This document shows, piece by piece, positions 17,061 through 52,776 of a stretch of 64,000 bases of DNA. The number at the start of each line of letters is the position of its first letter. Position 1 is the first letter of the stretch. The stretch is taken from the NCBI GenBank assembly GCA_042218075.1, contig JBDGRK010000005.1, positions 36,716 through 100,715 on the forward strand, read 5' to 3'. The notes under the pieces are model-generated. The model saw only the letters and a program-made list of their open reading frames with translations, was not told where the DNA came from and did no database searches. A program made the translations under genes and the position numbers. This stretch comes from Candidatus Nanohaloarchaea archaeon. GTDB lineage: Archaea; Nanohalarchaeota; Nanosalinia; Nanosalinales; Nanosalinaceae.

Positions 17061-17181
17061 ATGAAAGGTGGACGTTTTTACACCGGAGCATTTTGAAAAT
17101 GACTTAAAACCTTCTAGCTTTAGCTCCAGCTTATTAAGTTCCCGCCCCGAATCTCTCTGCATGGTGGTTCTGAATGGATAG
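17061..17181 (+). promoter_or_regulatory. Putative Tyr-sensing frameshift leader of tyrS
   Basis: uORF 17061-17096 ATG AAA GGT GGA CGT TTT TAC ACC GGA GCA TTT TGA; +1 frame open to TAG 17179-17181, overlapping the tyrS ATG by 8 nt. Confidence 0.75.
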
Positions 17182-18196
17182 AGAGAACAGGAAAGAGTTT
17201 GTCCTCAGGAATACTGCAGAGTTTGTGAAGGAGGAGGAACTGGATGAGGTGCTGGATAAAGATGAACCCCGCGCCTACGTTGGATACGAGACTTCTGGGC
17301 CCGCCCACCTGGGACACTGGATCTCGGTGAGAAAGATGCTGGACCTTCAGAAGGCTGGCTTTCAGCCTGTTATACTCTGGGCGGATCTCCACACATACCT
17401 GAACAAGAAAGGGGAGGAGGAATGGATCGAGGATATGATGGAGTACTGGCAGGCCACCTTCGAGGCACTGGGACTTGAGGCAGAATACACTAAAGGAAGG
17501 AGTTTCGAGGAAAAAACAGAGTATTTCCACGACGTACTGGAGATGGCGAAAGAGACCACGATTAACAGGGGGACTCGATCAATGTCGGAAGTTGCAAGAG
17601 ACGATGAAAACCCTTACATCTCCCAGATAATTTACCCTCTGATGCAGTGCCTGGACATAGAATATCTCGACCTTGACCTGGCGGTCGCGGGCATCGACCA
17701 GAGAAAGATTCACATGCTGGCGAGAGAGAAACTCCCAAAGCTCGGCTACAGGAAGCCTACCTGCCTCCACTGGCCGATGCTGGCTTCACTTTCAGGAACG
17801 GGAGACAAGATGTCGTCCAGCAAGAAAGATACAATGTTCCCTCTGCACGCCGACCCCGATCACATTAGAGAAATTATAGAGGAAGGCTACTGTCCGCAGG
17901 GAGAGGTTGAGGACAATCCTATCATCGAGATAGCAAAGTACTTCATCTTCGGAGCTGATCGAGAGCTAAAGATAGAGAGAAAGGAGGAGTACGGTGGAGA
18001 CATTCACTACGAGGATTTCGAGGCTATGGCTGAAGACTTCGAATCCGGAGATCTACACCCTCTAGACCTGAAGGAAGCTGTAGCTGACGAAGTGGTGGAA
18101 AGGTTTGAGCCGGTGAGGCAGCGATTCAGAGAAGAGCCTGAGCTGCTTGATCCACTGGAAGAGATAGGTCACGAGAGACCCGGATATCTCCAGTGA
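17174..18196 (+). CDS. tyrS: Tyrosine--tRNA ligase (archaeal type)
   Basis: YVGYETSGPAHLGH (HIGH), IYPLMQCLD, GIDQRKIHMLARE, KMSSS. Confidence 0.97.
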   Translation: MDRENRKEFVLRNTAEFVKEEELDEVLDKDEPRAYVGYETSGPAHLGHWISVRKMLDLQKAGFQPVILWADLHTYLNKKGEEEWIEDMMEYWQATFEALGLEAEYTKGRSFEEKTEYFHDVLEMAKETTINRGTRSMSEVARDDENPYISQIIYPLMQCLDIEYLDLDLAVAGIDQRKIHMLAREKLPKLGYRKPTCLHWPMLASLSGTGDKMSSSKKDTMFPLHADPDHIREIIEEGYCPQGEVEDNPIIEIAKYFIFGADRELKIERKEEYGGDIHYEDFEAMAEDFESGDLHPLDLKEAVADEVVERFEPVRQRFREEPELLDPLEEIGHERPGYLQ

Positions 18197-18243: not shown

Positions 18244-18337
18244 ATGAAGGGTGGACGCTTTTCCGGTCGGAAGGTTTTCGAATGAACCAAAACCTGTTCT
18301 AGTTAAAGCTTTCTTCCAAAGTGGTTGGTATGCTTGA
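18244..18337 (+). promoter_or_regulatory. Putative Ser-sensing frameshift leader of serS
   Basis: uORF 18244-18285 ATG AAG GGT GGA CGC TTT TCC ... TGA; +1 frame open to TGA 18335-18337, overlapping the serS ATG by 8 nt. Confidence 0.75.
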
Positions 18338-19595
18338 TATAGATCTTTTCAGGCAGAATCCCGAGGAGATCAGAGAATCACAGAGAAAAAGAGGTGAAGA
18401 TCCTGAAAAAGTAGATGAAGTTGTCGAAGTGGATAGAGAATGGAGAGAGAAGCTCCAGGAGCTGGAATCTCTGCAGCAGGAGAGAAATACTGTTGGAGAT
18501 GAAATTGCTGAAGCAAAACAGAAAGGGAAAGACGCCTCTGAAAAGATCGAAAGGATGCAGCAGCTGAAACAAAAGATAGATGAACTGGAGGATGAGGTAA
18601 AGCAGCTTAAGGAAAGACGTGACAACTTGAGATACCAGATTGGAAACTTGCTGCATGAATCAGTTCCCGAAGGAGAAGGAGAGGAAGACAATCCTGAAGT
18701 CAGGAGCTGGGAGCCTGAAGGAGGAAGAAAGGAGGATTCGAAGCTGGCAGCCCACATTATGGAAGAGCAGAATTTGCTTTCCTCGGAGAAAGCGACTGAG
18801 GTGGGCGGAGAAAGAGCCTATTACCTATCACCAAAACTGATACAGCTTAGTCAGGCACTGATAAACTTCTCTATAGATTTCCTAGAGGAAAGAGGTTTCG
18901 GTGTATACCAGACTCCCTACATGCTGGAGGAAGAATCGATCTCAGCCGCAGTCGATCTTGAAACATTCGAAGAACAGCTTTACCAGGTGAATGAAAACGA
19001 TCGATACCTGATAGGGACCGCGGAGCACGCACTCGCCGCAAAGTACCAGAACGAAGTGATAGAAGAAGAACTTCCCCTCAAACTCGGAGGTTTCTCAACC
19101 AACTTCAGGAGGGAAGCCGGGAAGCACGGCCAGCAGACAAGAGGTCTATGGCGAGTACACCAGTTCGAGAAGGTGGAGCAGTTCGTGTTCTGCAAGCCAG
19201 AAAACCACCTTGATATTCTTGAAGAGACTCTATCCAATGCCGAGGATATAATGAAGCAGCTTGGTCTGCCGTACAGGGTGGTTGATATTTGTGACGGCGA
19301 TATTTCCAACAAGACTTTCAAACAGTACGATATAGAGGTCTGGAGGCCTCCACTTGGAGAGTACGGAGAAGTAGGAAGCTACGGTTCGTGCACAGGCTAC
19401 CAGTCCAGGGAATTTAACACACAGTTCAGAGAGGGAGGCAACAGAAAGACACCCTACACTGTATATGCCACTGGATTAGTACCTCAGAGGATTATTACAG
19501 CTATATTCGAGAACAATCAGGAAGAGGAAGGCATAAAGATTCCAGAACCTCTAAGAGATTACATGGGAGGCAAGGAGTACATCAGGCTGGAATAA
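18330..19595 (+). CDS. serS: Serine--tRNA ligase
   Basis: MLDIDLFR N-terminal coiled coil, LIGTAE, FRREAG...RGLWRVHQFEKVEQF. Confidence 0.97.
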   Translation: MLDIDLFRQNPEEIRESQRKRGEDPEKVDEVVEVDREWREKLQELESLQQERNTVGDEIAEAKQKGKDASEKIERMQQLKQKIDELEDEVKQLKERRDNLRYQIGNLLHESVPEGEGEEDNPEVRSWEPEGGRKEDSKLAAHIMEEQNLLSSEKATEVGGERAYYLSPKLIQLSQALINFSIDFLEERGFGVYQTPYMLEEESISAAVDLETFEEQLYQVNENDRYLIGTAEHALAAKYQNEVIEEELPLKLGGFSTNFRREAGKHGQQTRGLWRVHQFEKVEQFVFCKPENHLDILEETLSNAEDIMKQLGLPYRVVDICDGDISNKTFKQYDIEVWRPPLGEYGEVGSYGSCTGYQSREFNTQFREGGNRKTPYTVYATGLVPQRIITAIFENNQEEEGIKIPEPLRDYMGGKEYIRLE

Positions 19596-21554: not shown

Positions 21555-24500
21555 ATGGAAACCACGGTGATGATCGGGGAGAAGCCGAAAGTGGCATCGC
21601 GACTGGCTAACGCCCTTGGAGATTATTCTGTAGAAGAGAACAGAGGCGTAAAGAACTACGTGATGGAGACAGAAAACAGAGAGATAATCATAGCGCCGGC
21701 GGTTGGCCATATATTCAACCTGGAGCAGACGGAGGAAGGCTGGGATTACCCTGTATTCGACGTGGAGTGGAAACCAATATTCGAGACACAGGACGGAGCG
21801 AACTATGTAAAGAAATACTTCAATAACCTGAGAGATCAACTGGAGAAAGCAGACTCCTACATCAACGCCTGCGACTTCGATGTAGAAGGCGCGACTATAG
21901 GCGGGGTCATACTCAAGGAAATAGCCGAGGCCGAAAATCAGGAGATAGAAAGAATGAAGTTCTCCACGCTGACTCCCTCAGATCTACAGGATGCGTTCGA
22001 CAACCTTGAAGAGTTCGACCACGGAATGACTGAGGCGGGCATCACCCGCCATGTGCTCGACTTCTACTACGGCATCAATGTTTCTCGCGCCTTGATGAAA
22101 GCCGTGAGAAGCAACGACCGCTACAAGACACTATCCACCGGAAGAGTGCAGGGTCCGACCCTGAAGATACTGGCGGAGCGCGAAAGAGAGATAAAGGAGT
22201 TTGAGCCGGAGCCTTACTGGGAGCTCTATCTGATACACGAAGAGTTTGAAGCCCAGTGGGAGGACGAAGAGGACAGGATATGGAAGGAAGAGGTAGCGGA
22301 CAGGATTTTCTCGAAAATCAAAGGAGAGGAAAGGGCAAGAGTTTCAAACATCAAGGTAAACAACTACAAGCACAACCCTCCAATCCCGTTCAACCTGACA
22401 GGACTCCAGAGCGAAGCATCCTCACAGTTCAACCTTTCACCCAAGGCAACGCAGTCGATATCACAGGATCTCTACGAAGAAGGTCTGATCTCGTATCCTA
22501 GAACAGAGTCGCAGAAACTTCCGCCGAAGATAGGTTATAAGAACATCCTCAACAAGCTGAAGAAAAAGAAAGACGATTATAAGGAGAAAGCGGAGAAAGT
22601 TCTGGAGAAGGATAAAAACGATAATCTATACACCACGCAGGGGAAGAAGGAAGATGATGCCCACCCCGCGATATATCCAACGGGAGAGGGATCGACCTCC
22701 AGCCTTTCAAAGAGGGAGAAGCAGGTCTACGACCTGATAGTCAAGCGTTTCTTCGCAGTGTTTGGAAAAACCGCGAAGAGAAAGTCGCTGACGATGACCC
22801 TGAGTGTAAAGGAGGAGGATTTCAAGGCCAAGTCGAAGGTAACGGTGGAGAGAAACTGGTACGACCTCTACGAACCCTATGTGAAGGTGGATGAGGCAGA
22901 ACTTCCCGACCTTGAAGAGGGAGATGTGCTGGATGTAGAAGAGTTCCGGAAGGAGGAGAAGGAGACCCAGCCCCCGAACCGCTACTCTCAATCCAAGATC
23001 GTCAATAAACTTGAAAAGAGAGAGCTGGGAACCAAGTGTCTAACTGAGGAAGAGAAAATAATCGTCAGGGATGGAGATAGTATCGATAGAGTCCCGGTTT
23101 CGGAACTACTTGGAAATCAAAATCGGAATGAAGGCCAGATACAGATTACAAGTTCGAATAAAGATCTGCAAGTAATAGGTTACAACTCAAACTTTGAGAA
23201 AAGTGGCTTTTCAGCCATAAGTAGAAGAAAATTGGAGGAGGATGAAAAAGTTGTAGAATTAAAATTGAGAGATTCTTCGACAATTAATGTAACTTCAAAT
23301 CATCCTGTACTAGTACTTGAGGATGGAGAAGCAGTCTATCGGGAAGCTGGGAAAGTTGATAAAGGAGATAGATTAATCAGATCTCACAGAGCGGATGTTG
23401 GATCAGTTAATCAGATAGGATTTGAAGAATTTATCCAGAAACTGGACAGAAAATCATCTCTCTACGGCGACTGCAAATTCAGGAAAGAGAGAGAAAGACT
23501 TGGTCTCTCCCAGAAGAATATGGCGGATAGATTGGAAACTCCCAGATCCACTCTGAGCAAGGTGGAAAATAGAAAGCATGGTCTGCTGAGATACTGGAAG
23601 AAAGCAAACCTTGAAGAACCAGATTATATCTCTAGTGAGAACTTTGAGTTAAAAATTCCAAATCCTTTCCCGATTAAAATCTCTCCGGCGTTTATGCGAT
23701 TGGTAGGGATGCTAGAAGGGGACGGCTCACTAGATATTGAGGGAAAGAAAAAAGAGAACAAGCTTGATTTCCGTTATCATAATACTGAGAAGGAGCTGGT
23801 TAACCAGTTCCGCAGAGATGTAGAATCAATCTTTAGATTCAGACCTGAGATAAAATGTGAACCGCCAAGCACAGGCGACCTGGATCGTTATTACGTTCGG
23901 TTACCAGCTGTCATTGGTAGGATTATGTCAATTATTACTGAAAATCTATCTCGAAAATGGATAATGAAGCAGGATAGAGGGAGCCATTACGTGGGTGCGC
24001 TACTAGCGGATGAAGGACATGTATCAAATTCAGAACCTAAAATATTCATCTCCAATACTGATAAAGGTATACTTCAAAACTGCAGTGAAATACTTCTTTC
24101 TAAAGGGATAGACTCGAAAATAAATATGTCGCAGAAAAAAATCTATATCAGAGGCCGTAGAAATCTGGAAAAATTCCTAGAAGAAATACCTATATTTTCT
24201 ACCAGAAAACATCAGGCGCTAATAGACCTCCTGGAGAGACACTACAAATTTGGGGGAGAGGAGTCCAGTTTGATGAAACAGAAAAAGATTCTGAGCAAAG
24301 TACAGGAAAAACCGAGGACACTGAAGGATATATCGGAAGGACTTGAAATGTCGGAATCCGCGGTAAAGCATCAACTCTACAATCTAAGAGACAAGGGATA
24401 CGTCGAGAAGAAGATAGAGGGAATCTCAGAAAGACCCAGGAAAATCATATTGTATGAATCAACGGAACCTATATCCGAAACATTCTTCAGCGAACTTGAT

Positions 24501-25202
24501 GAGAAGGCATTTGGAGAGGCTCATACGGCAGAAGTTGGTTCCGTAAATGAAGTAAAATATAGCGGTTATGTCTACGATATATTAGATACAGAGAATAATA
24601 ACTTTATTCTTGACAACAGAACAGTTGTCCACAACTCTACCAGGGCACAGACCGTGGATAGACTCTACGACCGGAACTATATTGAAAACCAGCCGATAGA
24701 GGTCACTGACCTGGGACTTGTGATAGTCGAGACACTGGAAGAATACTCCCCCGACCTTGTCTCAGAAGAGCTGACCAGAGAGTTCGAGAAGAAGATGGAA
24801 TCCATCCGGCAGGAGAAAGAGTCCCGGGAAGAAGTTCTGGACGAAGCCCAGGACAAGCTTATCGAGACTCTGACAGGTTTCCGGGAACACCAGAAGGAGA
24901 TTGGGAAGAAGCTGGTGGAGACTATAGACCAGGAAAGGCAGAGGAGGAGACAGCTCGGTCCATGCGATCAATGTGAGGACGGCACACTGAGGATGATAAA
25001 GAAGGGCGGTTCAAGGTTCGTCGGCTGTTCAAACTACCCTGACTGCGAGAACACCTATCCCCTGCCGAACAACGGCGACATAGAGTCTACCGATGAGATA
25101 TGTGATGAATGCAACACGCCGAAGATTTTCGTGGATAGAGATAAAGGAAAGAACTACAAAATGTGTATTAAAGTCTCATGTCCTACTAAAGACAACTGGT
25201 AA
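21555..25202 (+). CDS. topA: DNA topoisomerase IA with intein
   Basis: IGEKPKVA (TOPRIM), ACDFDVEG, LSTGRVQGPTL, LISYPRTES, C-terminal Zn ribbons; insertion between LGTK and STRA. Confidence 0.96.
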   Translation: METTVMIGEKPKVASRLANALGDYSVEENRGVKNYVMETENREIIIAPAVGHIFNLEQTEEGWDYPVFDVEWKPIFETQDGANYVKKYFNNLRDQLEKADSYINACDFDVEGATIGGVILKEIAEAENQEIERMKFSTLTPSDLQDAFDNLEEFDHGMTEAGITRHVLDFYYGINVSRALMKAVRSNDRYKTLSTGRVQGPTLKILAEREREIKEFEPEPYWELYLIHEEFEAQWEDEEDRIWKEEVADRIFSKIKGEERARVSNIKVNNYKHNPPIPFNLTGLQSEASSQFNLSPKATQSISQDLYEEGLISYPRTESQKLPPKIGYKNILNKLKKKKDDYKEKAEKVLEKDKNDNLYTTQGKKEDDAHPAIYPTGEGSTSSLSKREKQVYDLIVKRFFAVFGKTAKRKSLTMTLSVKEEDFKAKSKVTVERNWYDLYEPYVKVDEAELPDLEEGDVLDVEEFRKEEKETQPPNRYSQSKIVNKLEKRELGTKCLTEEEKIIVRDGDSIDRVPVSELLGNQNRNEGQIQITSSNKDLQVIGYNSNFEKSGFSAISRRKLEEDEKVVELKLRDSSTINVTSNHPVLVLEDGEAVYREAGKVDKGDRLIRSHRADVGSVNQIGFEEFIQKLDRKSSLYGDCKFRKERERLGLSQKNMADRLETPRSTLSKVENRKHGLLRYWKKANLEEPDYISSENFELKIPNPFPIKISPAFMRLVGMLEGDGSLDIEGKKKENKLDFRYHNTEKELVNQFRRDVESIFRFRPEIKCEPPSTGDLDRYYVRLPAVIGRIMSIITENLSRKWIMKQDRGSHYVGALLADEGHVSNSEPKIFISNTDKGILQNCSEILLSKGIDSKINMSQKKIYIRGRRNLEKFLEEIPIFSTRKHQALIDLLERHYKFGGEESSLMKQKKILSKVQEKPRTLKDISEGLEMSESAVKHQLYNLRDKGYVEKKIEGISERPRKIILYESTEPISETFFSELDEKAFGEAHTAEVGSVNEVKYSGYVYDILDTENNNFILDNRTVVHNSTRAQTVDRLYDRNYIENQPIEVTDLGLVIVETLEEYSPDLVSEELTREFEKKMESIRQEKESREEVLDEAQDKLIETLTGFREHQKEIGKKLVETIDQERQRRRQLGPCDQCEDGTLRMIKKGGSRFVGCSNYPDCENTYPLPNNGDIESTDEICDECNTPKIFVDRDKGKNYKMCIKVSCPTKDNW
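23037..24635 (+). mobile_element. Intein with LAGLIDADG endonuclease and HTH domains in TopA (533 aa)
   Basis: Starts CLTEEE, block B VTSNHP, LVGMLEGDG and VGALLADEG motifs, ends VVHN followed by Ser; visibly AT-richer than the exteins. Confidence 0.93.
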
Positions 25203-25207
25203 ATACT

Positions 25208-26707
25208 TTAGATTTTTAGTTTTCTATTGAGCTTTTCAATCTGTTTCTGGCTGTAACTCTGGAACTTTGGTTCATATCTATAAAATGTCTTAAAGAACCG
25301 GATTACCGTCCAATTTCTCAAATAATATTTATACTTATCTCTAATCACAGTTGTGTCAAATAGTTTCTCCAATTTTGAGGCAGTATCACTATTTTTATTC
25401 TGGATTCTTAGCTCATCTTTGCTAGATATCAAGTTAGATGCTATATTATCTATATTTTGGGATACCTTGACAGGCAATTTTACACCTGAATTAGAATTTC
25501 CTCTCAATCCTACTTTGAACTCCACTTCTTCTTTATTCAATTTCTCCAAAAAAGTTTCTCTAGATTCAAATATTGAATCTAACTTCTCTACAGAAGCAAA
25601 ATCGATTTCATTCTCCCAAGCATAAACCTGATTTTTTGATATACCTAATTCAGATCCTAATTCCTTCTGGTATAGATTATTCCTTTCTCTATAATCTCTA
25701 ATCTCATCACCCAATCCTAGGACCCTTAAATCGCTGATTTTTCCAAGATCAAAGTATGGTAAGTAAAAATTATGATTTCTTCTTCCCCTATAACACAGAG
25801 TCCTGGATCCATTTTTCAGCTTTGAAAAAATATGCTTTTTCTTCCTAGGATGTGCAGATCCAATCTTTTCGCAAAAGTATTCGAAATAATTACCTGAAAT
25901 CCTAATCCTGCCAACACCGTTCCTTTCTCTTCTATTTTTAGTCTCAATTCCCATATACTGAAGATCAGAAACACATTGATCGATAAAATGATCAGTTGCG
26001 GATGTTATTGTTACACGGTTACTTTGAGAAGAAACCGCACCATCTGCATCAAATAAACCCCTCCAATAAGCACCCAGCAATTCTTCATCTTCACTAAAAA
26101 GACTTGGCCGCCTTAATTTTCCTTTTTTATAAGATTCTGGCAACTTGAAAAAATATCTGAGGAACCTACAGAACCATTTATTTGAAACAGTCAGTTGAAT
26201 TTTATTTCCTCTATCTAGAATAGTTATAGATTTTTGAGGTATACCAAATAGTCTTTGAATCTTCATTGACATATCCTCGATAAAATCTCTGGAATGTGAG
26301 ATTTCCGAATCATTCTTTCCTCCGTCCACTAAAGTCCATCTAGATGAGTCAGAGAATCCGCCATCACCAGCAGCCAGACCAGCGAAATAAGCATATTCAT
26401 CTGATCTTAATTCAGAAATAAATCTAGGAGGATCAAATCTTGATTTATCTCCATATCCTGTGATGTAATCTATAGCTTCAGCTAGTTCTTTTGAACTATA
26501 TCTTGTTAAAAAGATTTCCAAAGGCCATAAGTTTCGCTCTTCGCAATTCCTAATTAAATAACCTTCATAATTTTCCAGATCAGTAGAATCAAAATTAAAT
26601 CTAGAGTTAAGCTTAGCGTATGGCTTCTCTCTAAAAGTTTTATCCAAATCTCTAGAGACCGATTCAACTATTTTAAGCTCTCCAGACTCGTAAAATAGCT
26701 CTTCCAT
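25208..26707 (-). CDS. Free-standing LAGLIDADG homing-endonuclease-like protein with XRE-type HTH
   Basis: FAGLAAGDG and WRGLFDADG motifs; LYQKELGSELGISKNQVYAWEN HTH; AT-rich; no intein termini. Confidence 0.85.
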   Translation of the reverse strand: MEELFYESGELKIVESVSRDLDKTFREKPYAKLNSRFNFDSTDLENYEGYLIRNCEERNLWPLEIFLTRYSSKELAEAIDYITGYGDKSRFDPPRFISELRSDEYAYFAGLAAGDGGFSDSSRWTLVDGGKNDSEISHSRDFIEDMSMKIQRLFGIPQKSITILDRGNKIQLTVSNKWFCRFLRYFFKLPESYKKGKLRRPSLFSEDEELLGAYWRGLFDADGAVSSQSNRVTITSATDHFIDQCVSDLQYMGIETKNRRERNGVGRIRISGNYFEYFCEKIGSAHPRKKKHIFSKLKNGSRTLCYRGRRNHNFYLPYFDLGKISDLRVLGLGDEIRDYRERNNLYQKELGSELGISKNQVYAWENEIDFASVEKLDSIFESRETFLEKLNKEEVEFKVGLRGNSNSGVKLPVKVSQNIDNIASNLISSKDELRIQNKNSDTASKLEKLFDTTVIRDKYKYYLRNWTVIRFFKTFYRYEPKFQSYSQKQIEKLNRKLKI

Positions 26708-26821: not shown

Positions 26822-27196
26822 TCACAGCGAGGATTCAGAGAATTCACCACCTCTCTCAAACATTCTGGCCTGGCTTTCACCCCCATCGACAGAAGAGTTG
26901 TGCCGAACATCCCTCATTTTTTCTTCGTATTCCTGTTCTTGCTCTTCCACTTCTCCTCCATCGGTTGCAACAGGTTTCAGGAAGTCTTTAGTCTGTCTCC
27001 AGTTGGGTAGAGATCTCATTCTCTGCATCATTAATTCATTTCCAACCTCAGCAGACATAACTCCCTCATAGTCGCTATCTGTTTCAGGAGTTACTCTGTA
27101 CTTGCTTCTTCTAGTCTCCTCTACATGGTAACCGTTTCTATCAAACTCTCTCGCCTCTTCTTCAGTGAGATCAAGGTAAACAGAGTTTCCAGCCAT
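26822..27196 (-). CDS. Orphan acidic protein with ATDGG motif
   Basis: Start MAGNSV at 27196 shares TGATG with the upstream mini-ORF. Confidence 0.65.
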   Translation of the reverse strand: MAGNSVYLDLTEEEAREFDRNGYHVEETRRSKYRVTPETDSDYEGVMSAEVGNELMMQRMRSLPNWRQTKDFLKPVATDGGEVEEQEQEYEEKMRDVRHNSSVDGGESQARMFERGGEFSESSL

Positions 27197-27279
27197 CAAG
27201 ATCTCCCCCAAGAGCTGTTTCTATTCTCGTACTGGTTTTTGACGTTTGCGTCGTGGTTGTGGTGTGTTGTGTTTGTCAT
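27196..27279 (-). CDS. Mini-ORF (27 aa) coupled to the downstream orphan gene
   Basis: SD AGGTGA; MTNTTHHNHDANVKNQYENRNSSWGRS*; TGATG overlap. Confidence 0.6.
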   Translation of the reverse strand: MTNTTHHNHDANVKNQYENRNSSWGRS

Positions 27280-27284
27280 GGTTG

Positions 27285-27555
27285 TCACCTACAGCAAGAA
27301 GCTGTTCCCGACCTGCCAGGCCAAGAAACAGCGAGAAAACTCTACACAATAAGCAGCAGCACAATCAGGATAATCGAAACTGCACTGAATTCAGATACTT
27401 TCGAAAACAAACCAGAATCCATATTTGAGAAACTAACCGAGCAGAACATGTCCACCCTGGATAAAGCATCCACCCTGCACAAAATATTCACCCGTGGGGG
27501 CCGTGGACAGTGCTTTATGGAACATAGTCGTTAAGTCTCCTCTATTCTTTATAAA
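27285..27555 (-). promoter_or_regulatory. Putative Val/Ile/Leu-sensing triple-site frameshift leader
   Basis: TTTATAAA 22 nt before ATG 27525; uORF 27433-27525 with GGT GAA TAT TTT GTG / GGT GGA TGC TTT ATC / GGT GGA CAT GTT CTG; +1 frame ends IILIVLLLIV* at 27342; hairpin follows. Confidence 0.75.
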
Positions 27556-27563
27556 ACTCAGGT

Positions 27564-28418
27564 TCAGCGCACCTCTCCGGAAAGAAATTCTATAACCCTG
27601 TCGGTTCTGCTCTGAGCCGACTCCAGGTCGAACTCCTCGCCAAGTTGCTCAAACTTTTTCCTGAAAGCTTCTTCGTCGCCTATTATCTCGGAGAGTTCCT
27701 CTGCCGACTCTATAAATCTCTCCCTGACCTCCTCATTCTCGGGATTCTCCGCCTGTATAGAACCGTAGAGCCCGGCTTTTTGATTCAGTATTCTTGCGGT
27801 GAGATCAGTTATAAGCTGGTAGACCGGCGAGGAATAGTTTGAGATTTCCTCGCCAGAAAGATCAGATTTCCTTATAGTCTCCGCGACAACAAGCTCGGAG
27901 AAATGCATCAATCCCTGGACTATAGACATCGCCTCATCGTGAGTCTCCGGATCGGTGATATGTGTTTCCGCCCCTCTGCTCTCCCAGAACTCCTCCATCT
28001 CCGTCCATTTCTTTCCCTTCTCCGGGCACAGCACCACTTTCTGTCCTTCAATAGAATTGGTGGGAGCGTACATAGGATGCATTCCAAGAACCTCATCCGA
28101 GTACTTCTTCATCGCTTCAACCGGTTTCTTCTTCACCGAAGTGATATCGCAGAAGAGAGCGTCTTCAGGCACTTCTTCCCCTACCTCGTGGATCACTTCA
28201 ACGGTCACAGAGATCGGGACCGCCACAATTACAACATCCGCACCCTCCACAACCTCAGAACTTCTACCGTAATCCCAGTCTTCTCCCTCAGCGGCTTCTC
28301 TCGCTTTCTCCAGCGATCTACCTGAAACGGAAACCTCATTATTCTCTTCTAGATGACCGGCGAGATGCTGACCGAACTTTCCCGTCCCTCCAACTATCGC
28401 GACTTTCTTTCCTATCAT
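27564..28418 (-). CDS. tyrA: Prephenate dehydrogenase
   Basis: VAIVGGTGKFG Rossmann motif, DITSVK, GMHPMYAP, HDEAMSIVQGLMH. Confidence 0.93.
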   Translation of the reverse strand: MIGKKVAIVGGTGKFGQHLAGHLEENNEVSVSGRSLEKAREAAEGEDWDYGRSSEVVEGADVVIVAVPISVTVEVIHEVGEEVPEDALFCDITSVKKKPVEAMKKYSDEVLGMHPMYAPTNSIEGQKVVLCPEKGKKWTEMEEFWESRGAETHITDPETHDEAMSIVQGLMHFSELVVAETIRKSDLSGEEISNYSSPVYQLITDLTARILNQKAGLYGSIQAENPENEEVRERFIESAEELSEIIGDEEAFRKKFEQLGEEFDLESAQSRTDRVIEFLSGEVR

Positions 28419-50739: not shown

Positions 50740-52776
50740 CTATTCTATCTCCATCGCTATATCGGTAATGTAGAGCTCTCCATCCCTCAGCATCGCGGGA
50801 TTGAGGTCGATCTCCTGAATCTCTTCGTGGTTGAGCGCCATCTCGCCGAGCCTGATGATCGCATCCTTCACCGGCTCGAGATTGTGATGCTCTCCCCTCA
50901 CACCTTCAAACATTTCATGGGATTCAAGCTCGTCTATCATGATCTCCGCCTCCTCCTCTGAGATTGGAGCGATACCAAACGAGACATCGTTCAAAACTTC
51001 TATGTAGATGCCACCGAGTCCAACCATAACCATGGGGCCGAACTGTGGATCCCTCTTCACGCCTAGAGCCACCTCAATTCCATCAAGCTGCTCCTGGAGC
51101 TGGACGCCTTTTATCTCAGATCCTGGAGCATTCCGATGCACATTTTCCACAATCTCTTGGAACGCCTGCATCACTTCTTCCCTGGTCTCAACTCCTGTCT
51201 CAACCGCTCCCAGATCAGTCTTGTGCTTTATATCCGGGGAATCGATCTTCATGACAAGAGGATACCCGATATTCGGTGCAGCCTCTGTCGCGTCTCTCGG
51301 GGCTTCCGCAACCTCCGTCAGCGCAACGCTGAAGCCGTAATAGGCAAAAAGATCCTCCTTGTCCTCAAAGTTCTCAAACTTCTCCAGAGCCTCTTCAGCT
51401 TTCTCCCTATCAAACTCGAGATCCCTGTAGCTCTCATCTCTGTCAAGAAACTCGCCGTAGCTTTTCATCGCCTCAAGCGTCGAGACCGCATCCATAGGAT
51501 CCTTGAACTCAGGAACGTGATTCTCCTCAAGTATCTCGATGCCCGACTCCACGTCCTCCTCCCCCATGAAACAGGCGAATACAGGTTTGCTTGATTCCTC
51601 TGAGATATTTGAAATCGTCTTCGCCGTCTTGTCGATCTCCGTGTTCGCCTGCGGGGTCAGAAGGACAATGATTGCGTCCACATTCTCATCCTCAACCACT
51701 GCTTCAAGCGCATTCTTGTAGCGCTCGTGTCCCGCGTCCCCGATCACATCCAGAGGATTGTGAGCGGAGGCCTCATCCGGCAGGGATTCCCCCAGCCGAT
51801 CCCTGGTTTCCGGGGAAAACTCAGCCAGCTCCAGTCCATGCTCGGATATCTCGTCGGTTGTTATCACGCCAGGACCTCCAGCGTTCGTGACCACCGCGAT
51901 GCTATCTCCTTCAGGGAGAGGCTGGTAGTTGAAGGCCCTCCCGAAGTCGAGCAGCTCCCGGTTGGACTCCGCCTCGATTATTCCTGACTTCCGGAAAGCT
52001 GCCTTATAAGCCTCGTAGCTCCCTGCGATCGATCCAGTGTGAGAGGATGCTGCGTCACCCCCCTGGTCGGTCCTCCCCGACTTTACCATCACGATCGGCT
52101 TTTGCTCCGAGGTCTTCTTCGCCTCTTCTATGAACTCCCTGCCGTTCTCTATTCCTTCCGTGTATGAAAGTATAGTTTCTGTTTCATCCTCCCTCCACTT
52201 CCTCAGGAAGTCAACCTCGTCCAGCATCGACTTGTTTCCAAGGGAGACGAAATGCCTGAATCCTATGTGCTCCGCCTTCGCGTAATCGAGAATCGCGGTG
52301 CAGAACGCACCGGACTGGCTCATAAAGCTAATTTCGCCCTCCTCAGGCATCTTGGAGGCAAAGGAGGCGTTCATGGAGTTCTCAGTGTTGATCAATCCCA
52401 GGACGTTCGGTCCAAGCAGATCGATGCCGTGGTCCTCCGCCTTCTGCAGAAGCTGCTGCTCAAGCTCCTCGCCGCCGGACTCGGAAAAGCCAGCAGAAAC
52501 AACAATCGCTGCCTCCACTCCCTTCTCTCCACAATCCTCAATCACTGATGGAACGATCTTCGCCGGAACAGCTATAACCGCCATATCCGCGTCTTCCGGG
52601 ACTTCATCTTCGCATTCGACTCCATGTATCTCATTTGCCTTTGGATTCACCGGAACTACATCTCCCTCAAACTCGTGGAGAAGATTGTCAAAGATTTCAT
52701 GGCCGGTCTTCCCCTCCTGCCTCGAAGCTCCGACCACCGCCACAGTTTCCGGCAGAAACAGCTTTTCCAGTTTCAC
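50740..52776 (-). CDS. acdAB: ADP-forming acetyl-CoA synthetase (fused alpha/beta)
   Basis: VAVVGAS, LGPNVLG, SQSGA, SHTGSIAG, TNAGGPG, ATP-grasp KIDSPDIKHKTD, DLNP. Confidence 0.94.
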   Translation of the reverse strand: MKLEKLFLPETVAVVGASRQEGKTGHEIFDNLLHEFEGDVVPVNPKANEIHGVECEDEVPEDADMAVIAVPAKIVPSVIEDCGEKGVEAAIVVSAGFSESGGEELEQQLLQKAEDHGIDLLGPNVLGLINTENSMNASFASKMPEEGEISFMSQSGAFCTAILDYAKAEHIGFRHFVSLGNKSMLDEVDFLRKWREDETETILSYTEGIENGREFIEEAKKTSEQKPIVMVKSGRTDQGGDAASSHTGSIAGSYEAYKAAFRKSGIIEAESNRELLDFGRAFNYQPLPEGDSIAVVTNAGGPGVITTDEISEHGLELAEFSPETRDRLGESLPDEASAHNPLDVIGDAGHERYKNALEAVVEDENVDAIIVLLTPQANTEIDKTAKTISNISEESSKPVFACFMGEEDVESGIEILEENHVPEFKDPMDAVSTLEAMKSYGEFLDRDESYRDLEFDREKAEEALEKFENFEDKEDLFAYYGFSVALTEVAEAPRDATEAAPNIGYPLVMKIDSPDIKHKTDLGAVETGVETREEVMQAFQEIVENVHRNAPGSEIKGVQLQEQLDGIEVALGVKRDPQFGPMVMVGLGGIYIEVLNDVSFGIAPISEEEAEIMIDELESHEMFEGVRGEHHNLEPVKDAIIRLGEMALNHEEIQEIDLNPAMLRDGELYITDIAMEIE

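Follow-up and report, generated by a model that had tools for sequence, protein, structure and literature searches.

We analysed a stretch of 64,000 nt from a Candidatus Nanohaloarchaea archaeon (GenBank assembly GCA_042218075.1, contig JBDGRK010000005.1, positions 36,716 to 100,715 of the forward strand), referred to here as the window, and focused on a locus of its minus strand where a short open reading frame (ORF) contains three similar modules ending in a Val, an Ile, and a Leu codon. Comparison with related genomes indicates that this locus is a triple-input member of a leader family spread across the phylum Nanohaloarchaeota; a chance repeat is excluded. The locus is almost certainly an amino-acid-specific leader with specifier codons, and it probably acts in cis by sensing charged tRNA for Val, Ile, and Leu via +1 frameshifting. 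For the family in general, we consider it fairly probable that the leaders work by +1 frameshifting at a hungry codon, a concept taken from the accessible part of a review of recoding (PMC5009743).

All coordinates given here are those of the window. The frame-0 leader ORF (27433–27525, minus strand) begins with ATG, has 30 codons followed by TAG, and holds all three modules. Module 1 (27478–27492, minus strand; GGTGAATATTTT followed by GTG) consists of a Shine–Dalgarno (SD)-like GGUGAA, the spacer UAU, the putative slip codon UUU, and the specifier GUG (Val). Module 2 (27460–27474, minus strand; GGTGGATGCTTT followed by ATC) has GGUGGA, UGC, UUU, and the specifier AUC (Ile), and module 3 (27442–27456, minus strand; GGTGGACATGTT followed by CTG), the core that is conserved most strongly, has GGUGGA, CAU, GUU, and the specifier CUG (Leu). 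The exact spacing of 18 nt between modules, reported by a sequence-only reading of this DNA, is present on the minus strand, and Tandem Repeats Finder returned a period of 18 with 2.4 copies, 80% matches, and a score of 51. The common +1 frame ending in IILIVLLLIV that was also reported is there as well. All three modules are in phase with this single +1 ORF (27491–27342, minus strand), which opens at the GUG within module 1 and has 49 codons plus a TAG at 27344–27342. Its tail (27345–27380, minus strand; VSIILIVLLLIV) is a run of Ile, Leu, and Val codons, the final 12 codons all being Ile, Leu, Val, or Ser-flanked. Two DNA sequencing runs, one from each of two studies, match the region 27150–27650 without a single difference or indel, which rules out an assembly error as the source of the frame relation. 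The DNA runs that matched the locus best were salt-lake metagenomes.

The specifier codon names the controlled gene. With NCBIfam models, six of six leaders in this genome were followed by the cognate synthetase; after AAG-GGT-GGA-CGC-TTT the specifier is TTC before PheS, ACC before ThrRS, GTT before ValRS, TAC before TyrRS, TCC before SerRS, and CCA before ProRS. All 10 leaders examined in three other genera and all seven in genomes of two further families, where HisRS, TrpRS, and CysRS are included, also precede the cognate synthetase, which brings the NCBIfam total to 23 of 23. The correspondence extends to amino acid enzymes, with the Ile specifier ATC before threonine ammonia-lyase (IlvA; NCBIfam) in this genome and a Trp specifier before a TrpD-like protein in genomes of two further families. 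The GlyRS leader of this genome has a single module, the same GGTGAATATTTT variant as in module 1, with the specifier GGA; the GlyRS itself was recognised by tblastn (68% identity to the GlyRS of a relative). No leader was seen at CysRS or at two class-Ia synthetase paralogues in this genome, and a His-type candidate leader on contig C40 has no identifiable target.

We also scanned one genome per species from 185,579 species for a pattern of TATA box, ATG, and motif. This independent scan yielded 45 stretches with 46 sites. Four of these sites lack the leader architecture and lie in four of six records with bacterial titles, and three leaders have no downstream ORF inside the locus. All 39 leaders with an identifiable downstream ORF were cognate by BLASTP (Cys, 1; Gly, 7; Ser, 10; Thr, 13; Tyr, 8), seven of them duplicating loci already counted. 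Because the search for the main start in this set began 20 nt ahead of the +1 stop, upstream distances are truncated by the design of the scan. Among identifiable cases we found no mismatch between specifier and gene. Thus, a specifier cognate to the regulated synthetase or pathway, which is a feature of the T-box type, is present. Two of these 39 leaders (L121 and L128) are in records titled as a Colwellia polaris metagenome-assembled genome and stand before SerRS and ThrRS with 59% and 77% identity, respectively, to nanohaloarchaeal proteins; these contigs, filed under a marine bacterium, are probably mis-binned.

Members of the family share a TATA-like box ~30 nt 5' of an ATG, a short ORF, and the motif AAR-GGUGGA-YGY-(U/G)UU followed by a specifier codon, with one to three copies of the module per leader. 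We detected the motif in 59 of the 70 genomes searched from the phylum, where the pattern gave ~321 matches and a reversed-pattern control ~30. A degenerate pattern together with a sequence-only covariance model detected the family in 47 of 70 genomes when E values up to 0.1 were accepted; for the 49 genomes of the taxonomic family the count was 43. By blastn of the region, the repeat core alone was matched, in two of 40 relatives, both from other genera. Loci that we inspected have a TATA-like box and an ATG ORF with a variable N-terminus of 2 to ~35 codons, and the motif is always in the frame of this ORF. The frame-0 stop comes a few codons past the motif and the +1 frame stays open for 25–60 codons. 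Of 102 regex candidates, a set that includes chance motif matches, 52 have a TATA-like hexamer that starts 22–45 nt 5' of the in-frame ATG, and in 40 of them it starts at 28–33 nt; near random ATGs the count was 18 of 637. This clustering places the frame-0 AUG at or near the 5' end of the mRNA. At the locus itself the TATA-like box TTTTATAAA (27548–27556, minus strand) is centred ~27 nt 5' of the leader ATG, a distance that implies a predicted leaderless or nearly leaderless mRNA. One candidate, L005, was rejected as a chance match within another gene, and L006, L008, and L011 were unlike the motif in a 50-nt view.

The motif appears to be constrained as RNA. The third base of the first Gly codon is U in 63 of 63 modules, even though the search anchor left this base free, and the second motif codon encodes Gly, Glu, or Asp. 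Because the amino acid at the second position varies while GGU is fixed, the constraint acts at the nucleotide level. RGGUGG is complementary to the 3' end of 16S rRNA (...GGAUCACCUCC, found on contig C28 of this genome) and has an invariant position 3–4 nt 5' of the (U/G)UU codon. We infer that this predicted SD-like element pairs with the 16S 3' end as a stimulator of the prfB type. The slip codon, in turn, depends on the first base of the specifier. It is GUU before specifiers that start with C (40/41), UUU before those that start with A or G (33/33), and either one before those that start with U (UUU, 14; GUU, 3). The combination UUU_C is presumably avoided because tRNA-Phe would slip too readily onto UUC. 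For this reason the rule is expected under frameshifting, and pure stalling does not predict it. The slow A-site codon would be a sense codon that depends on the gene (GUG, AUC, and CUG at this locus), and the in-frame UGA of prfB is absent. Transcriptional slippage was rejected as a source of the frame change; T-runs are just 2–6 nt long and are absent from the Leu modules. Loss of a frameshift suppressor was dropped as a lead when TIGR00270, which we take to be archaeal MBF1, was found in the genome above its cut-off. Aragorn, run without intron handling, detected 12 tRNAs and was therefore of no use for defining the set of tRNAs that read the slip codons.

The +1 frame is open in all relatives, and a short ORF0 overlapped by a productive +1 ORF, which is a feature of the prfB type, is present both at the locus and in relatives. 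Among 24 synthetase leaders, 23 have their +1 stop no more than 12 nt from the main ATG, and in 11 the stop and the main start overlap as ATGA. The frame-0 stops in this genome, as a comparison, are 47–152 nt 5' of the main ATG. A stop in the +1 frame is often found 1–10 codons 5' of the motif, for example the TGA within ATGAAG, so entry into the +1 frame must happen at the motif. In addition, the +1 frame leading on from the motif encodes TrpD-like, GNAT-like, DapE-like, HisC-like, and GCS2-like proteins, the match being weak for the GCS2-like protein. These proteins have no other usable start codon, and starting the TrpD-like protein at its first ATG would remove part of the domain.

Trp leaders occur as tandem pairs, in this genome on the minus strand of contig C10 (motifs at 50939 and 50663) and elsewhere at L064, L069, L075, L090, and L091. 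The first +1 ORF of a pair ends in a conserved Trp codon (...NFSW or ...NISW), and the second is a whole GNAT-like, DapE-like, HisC-like, or TrpD-like protein. In some of these operons TrpRS is found further downstream. Current gene calls would place the starts of these proteins at the GTG of the motif.

The branched-chain leaders, to which the locus belongs, have further features in common. Leaders with Ile, Leu, or Val specifiers have one to three modules; the modules of a leader invariably share a frame, and the +1 frame runs open through all of them. Triple-module leaders are rare, and among the loci inspected we saw this one and an Ile-Phe-Leu leader in genome G006. We compared the residue fractions of the last 12 residues of the +1 ORF by specifier set. 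Ile-only leaders (n=4) have tails with Ile at 0.54, Leu at 0.02, and Val at 0.06, and Leu-only leaders (n=9) have Ile at 0.10, Leu at 0.62, and Val at 0.05. Leaders with Ile and Leu specifiers (n=11) show 0.32, 0.41, and 0.05 for Ile, Leu, and Val, and those with Val and Leu specifiers (n=5) show 0, 0.52, and 0.22. At the locus, with Val, Ile, and Leu specifiers (n=1), Ile is at 0.33, Leu at 0.33, and Val at 0.25. In that their composition tracks the specifier set, the tails behave like regulatory codon runs and unlike a conserved membrane peptide. The tail at 27345–27380 is read here as a putative second-tier sensor.

Most branched-chain loci have a stable helix and a T/C-rich tract after the +1 stop. 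At the locus, the stem followed by TTCTT that had been noticed from the letters is indeed there, 10 nt past the +1 stop (27296–27332, minus strand), with arms of 14 and 13 nt and a loop of 5 nt. Positions 27332–27319 pair with 27313–27301, and TTCTT occupies 27300–27296. RNAfold predicts this stem, with a minimum free energy of –26.4 kcal/mol over 83 nt and z = –1.83; eight of 200 shuffles fold as stably. Folding of 15 relatives gave z values from –0.3 to –4.4, with 10 at –1.7 or lower and five between –0.3 and –1.2. The hairpin and TTCTT may serve as a terminator, and an attenuator test at the locus returned one predicted hairpin plus TTCTT with tools whose scope does not extend to archaeal termination signals. 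In about half of the 15 relatives the 3' arm of the hairpin covers the SD of a C/A-rich ORF.

This C/A-rich ORF, similar to ATGACACAACAC and 24–38 codons long, is found in 18 of the 24 tail-type loci scanned. In the window it is the third small ORF (27196–27279, minus strand; 27 codons), with its own SD, AGGUGA (27285–27290, minus strand), 5 nt 5' of its ATG, and its stop codon overlaps the start of the main gene in the sequence UGAUG. This ORF and its counterparts in L002–L036 are rich in Thr, His, Asn, and Gln, have their own SD, and are conserved between the +1 ORF and the main gene, to which they are coupled stop to start. The C/A-rich ORF may be an unstructured initiation region.

The regulated gene (26822–27196, minus strand) encodes an orphan acidic protein of 124 amino acids (aa). 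This protein contains 12.1% Ile, Leu, and Val, compared with a genome mean of 21.7% (standard deviation, 4.0), and just 0.2% of the genome's ORFs with at least 250 aa have a content this low or lower. Proteins behind tail-type leaders are generally small, acidic, and mostly unrelated, with 8–15% Ile, Leu, and Val, and this low content fits synthesis under branched-chain starvation. Among 5.8 billion protein clusters the sole match of the 124-aa protein was itself. Its cluster row lists a precomputed PF25951.1, which hmmscan against Pfam did not reproduce. By hhalign, the protein has no profile similarity (probability 0.1) to the small acidic proteins behind other tail-type leaders. A short motif resembling T-D-G-G recurs in the proteins behind L004, L010, L019–L023, L026, L027, L030, and L061; the 124-aa protein has ATDGG and VDGG, yet no detectable homology to the other proteins with this motif.

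Based on these observations we propose the following sequence of events. The ribosome would initiate at the 5'-proximal AUG and, when (U/G)UU is in the P site, the SD-like GGUGG 3–4 nt upstream would pair with the 3' end of 16S rRNA in a prfB-like manner. If the aminoacyl-tRNA is scarce, the specifier would be slow in the A site and the ribosome would move +1 onto UUN. Unshifted ribosomes would stop a few codons on, far from any start codon, and shifted ribosomes would translate the +1 ORF. In synthetase leaders this ORF ends on the main AUG, so that translation of the two would be coupled, and in some Trp leaders the +1 ORF would be the main protein itself. At this locus the three in-phase modules would feed one +1 ORF and act as an OR gate for Val, Ile, and Leu. 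A starved ribosome would then stall again at the last 12 Ile, Leu, and Val codons, just before the hairpin, and this second stall would hold open or prevent a structure that ends transcription or hides the SD of the C/A-rich ORF. Translation of the C/A-rich ORF would in turn be coupled to that of the orphan protein poor in Ile, Leu, and Val. An OR gate built from frameshift modules had been suggested from the letters; the specifier match, the conserved open +1 frame, and the composition of the tails speak for it, and the frameshift itself is the predicted part. Across the phylum, we regard as reasonably likely a regulon in which SD-stimulated +1 frameshifting at a hungry specifier reports the charging of a single tRNA and switches on the cognate synthetase and amino acid genes. 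With similar confidence, one could call this system a counterpart of the bacterial T-box that relies on the ribosome, in which modules may be strung together as OR gates and a second-tier codon run may come after them.

Several observations weigh against this proposal. All 63 modules have the GUG inside the motif, and this suits an internal start codon as well as it does an SD-like element. A slip at GUU, or before a specifier beginning with A or G, would lead to imperfect re-pairing, and the YRY spacer and the flanking AA of the motif lack an explanation. In one HisRS leader the +1 stop and the main ATG are 32 nt apart. At the locus, the hairpin is just modestly better than shuffles, TTCTT is a weak U-tract, and the 124-aa protein has no known function, a Pfam search with it giving nothing at E up to 10. 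The locus was matched by blastn in none of four genus-mates, and a search of sequencing runs for the locus found no RNA run that contained it. In phylogenetic terms, the leader counts from different relatives are not independent, and the units that are independent number ~12 amino acids or gene families. Lastly, a 2021 review states in its abstract that a single programmed frameshift, a –1 case, has been reported in Archaea (PMC8211752), and because of this a +1 sensor would be unprecedented in Archaea.

The alternative that we take most seriously, although we consider it unlikely, is attenuation by stalling only. In this case the frame-0 ORF would pause at the specifier, the pause would alter RNA structure, termination, or access to GUG, and the +1 ORF would be a separate cistron that starts at the GUG of the motif. 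The match between specifier and gene requires frame-0 decoding alone and is compatible with stalling, as is the invariant GUG; the TrpD-like and GNAT-like ORFs could formally begin at this codon, and the hairpins come after the +1 ORF. However, there is no SD-like G-run 4–9 nt 5' of the internal GUG (63 modules; G counts of 18, 4, 10, 5, 4, and 22), unlike the downstream ORFs, which have SDs of the GGAGGTG or AGGTGA type. In leaders of the ATGAAGGGTGGA type an AUG precedes the GUG, which is 7 nt away from the presumed 5' end. With the specifier in its A site, a paused ribosome would also cover the GUG 9 nt upstream and, because of this, starvation would lower synthetase expression, which is the wrong sign. 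Stalling gives no role to the dependence of GUU or UUU on the first base of the specifier, nor to the nucleotide constraint on GGUGG at 3–4 nt from (U/G)UU. Independent initiation of the +1 ORF at its GTG, the case named by the sequence-only reading as contrary to its own proposal, is thus disfavoured by the lack of an SD in 63 modules and by tails that are codon runs, as far as sequence alone can decide.

The near-invariant nucleotides of the conserved 15-mer, its lack of synonymous variation, and its fixed position near the promoter could also indicate a nucleic-acid site, either the operator of a DNA-binding regulator just 3' of the promoter or an RNA site bound by tRNA or protein, as in a T-box, with the reading frames being secondary. 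Synthetases and amino acid enzymes are also the gene classes targeted by bacterial T-boxes. We consider this quite improbable. Every real leader has an in-frame ATG and an early frame-0 stop, with N-termini from 2 to ~35 codons, and the specifier is always in the leader frame directly 3' of (U/G)UU. A single common operator cannot confer specificity for different amino acids, and no Rfam family, the T-box included, reached its gathering score in a scan of the whole window. A functional small hydrophobic peptide, membrane-bound or toxin-like, with the repeats as part of overlapping small genes, is the least probable explanation, and we give it very little credence. The +1 ORF in the window does end with 12 hydrophobic residues and many relatives have similar tails, but the tails vary with the specifier, those of Ile-only leaders being runs of Ile, Ser, and Gly with almost no Leu (Ile, 0.54; Leu, 0.02; n=4), and +1 ORFs of the synthetase type have no hydrophobic tail at all. 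Linkers are not conserved in length or sequence, the ORF stops right after the run, the GUG has no SD, and conservation is limited to the residues encoded by the motif and a compositional tail. Frameshifting at a hungry specifier is our preferred reading of these leaders.

The leader at the locus is on the same strand as, and 3' of, genes for prephenate dehydratase, an aminotransferase, and prephenate dehydrogenase (a pheA-aminotransferase-tyrA operon). The leader thus follows an aromatic amino acid operon, and ilv genes are not behind it. The genome from which the window comes measures 1.1 Mb in 40 contigs. A tRNA search of the window found none. An antisense gene was rejected because the 93-aa ORF on the plus strand (27253–27534) is broken by stops in two of four relatives.

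Other leaders were seen in the window. On the plus strand, an MKGGRF-Tyr leader (17061–17096) stands before TyrRS (17174–18196) and an MKGGRF-Ser leader (18244–18285) before SerRS (18330–19595), and the +1 ORFs of both stop 5 nt inside the main ORFs. On the minus strand, a Leu-only leader with a Leu-rich +1 tail (37727–37595) precedes an orphan 254-aa protein (37466–36702), and an Ile-only leader with an Ile/Ser/Gly tail (36647–36518) precedes threonine ammonia-lyase (36471–35425), the N-terminus of which is itself C/A-rich. Apart from leaders, a topoisomerase-like ORF of 1215 aa (21555–25202, plus strand) appears, from its translation, to hold a large insertion with intein-like ends, and it is followed by a free-standing ORF with LAGLIDADG_3 and HTH_3 domains by Pfam (25208–26707, minus strand).

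To our knowledge, how archaea fit the expression of synthetase and amino acid genes to tRNA charging is largely unknown, and we know of no archaeal T-box or classical attenuator. In full-text literature searches we came across no account of leaders of this kind, either in Nanohaloarchaeota or in other archaea. If the proposed mechanism is true, the leaders would represent the first case in Archaea of a regulatory +1 frameshift, as well as the first frameshift sensor in nature with a specificity set by one exchangeable sense codon. The modular rule, in which a fixed motif plus one codon gives amino acid specificity, can be tested by codon swaps. A real frameshift would mean that a process known chiefly as an error, frameshifting at hungry codons, has been put to use as a general sensor, and that SD-stimulated +1 frameshifting extends from bacterial prfB to archaeal ribosomes; it would also provide a compact programmable amino acid sensor for synthetic biology. 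For annotation, the starts of TrpD-like, GNAT-like, and DapE-like ORFs would be mis-assigned and dozens of small ORFs per genome missed. Even if stalling alone operates, the leaders would constitute a new family of leader-peptide regulators in archaea, each acting through a single codon.

Attenuators of amino acid operons offer one comparison. The ilv leader of enterobacteria has a multivalent Ile, Leu, and Val input that resembles this locus. Like the enterobacterial attenuators (ilvGMEDA, leu, trp, and pheA), the locus has a short leader ORF in which regulatory codons form a run immediately ahead of a hairpin and a U-rich tract. Unlike them, the codon run is in the +1 frame of a leaderless ORF and would be reached only through the motif, the predicted structure is one hairpin, in a class defined by mutually exclusive terminator and antiterminator hairpins, and the controlled gene is an orphan and not ilv, with an Ile-only leader elsewhere preceding IlvA. 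The analogy with ilvGMEDA drawn earlier from the letters is thus apt for the codon run before the hairpin, but it does not extend to the host, which is an archaeon, or to the target, the orphan 124-aa protein, and the terminator it involves is predicted. The polycysteine ORFs of mycobacteria are also short leaderless ORFs that act as amino-acid-responsive attenuators of operons; these are bacterial and have in-frame Cys runs, and the accessible part of the report describes no frameshift module or single specifier (bioRxiv 10.1101/834739). In the ermC leader, where ketolides induce a frameshift, the shifted ribosomes similarly translate into the spacer, unfold the mRNA, and switch on the gene, according to the accessible part of the review (PMC5009743). 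However, the trigger of ermC is an antibiotic and not the supply of aminoacyl-tRNA, and ermC has no SD-like stimulator, specifier codon, or regulon.

Further parallels are with T-boxes and prfB. In T-box systems of Gram-positive bacteria, synthetase and amino acid genes have leaders with a specifier codon, and an antiterminator pairs with the acceptor end of the tRNA. The leaders described here likewise precede synthetase and amino acid genes, each with a single cognate specifier codon. Unlike T-boxes, they have no Rfam sequence or structure match, the codon would be read by a translating ribosome within an ORF and not by free tRNA on a folded leader, and an antiterminator with a pairing site for the tRNA acceptor end was not seen. 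Bacterial prfB, which encodes release factor 2, has an SD-like stimulator before CUU_U (UUU_U in a minority), and the slow codon in the A site sets the rate of shifting, as given in the accessible part of the review (PMC5009743). The leaders share with prfB a short ORF in the zero frame that contains, a few nt 5' of an NUU slip codon, an SD-like element, and their sequences suggest that here too a slow A-site codon sets the rate and that productive translation is in the +1 frame. They differ in using a sense codon that varies with the gene in place of UGA, and they would report aminoacyl-tRNA and not release factor. They also serve a whole regulon, mostly by predicted termination and reinitiation at the main AUG instead of fusion, they are archaeal, and their modules can be repeated for several inputs. 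The 2016 recoding review covers prfB, antizyme, hungry codons, the ermC leader, and pheL, and its accessible part has no amino-acid-specific frameshift regulon (PMC5009743). The parts of the system are familiar, and the combination of a motif with one exchangeable sense codon, a synthetase regulon, and an archaeal phylum appears to be a new kind of regulator.

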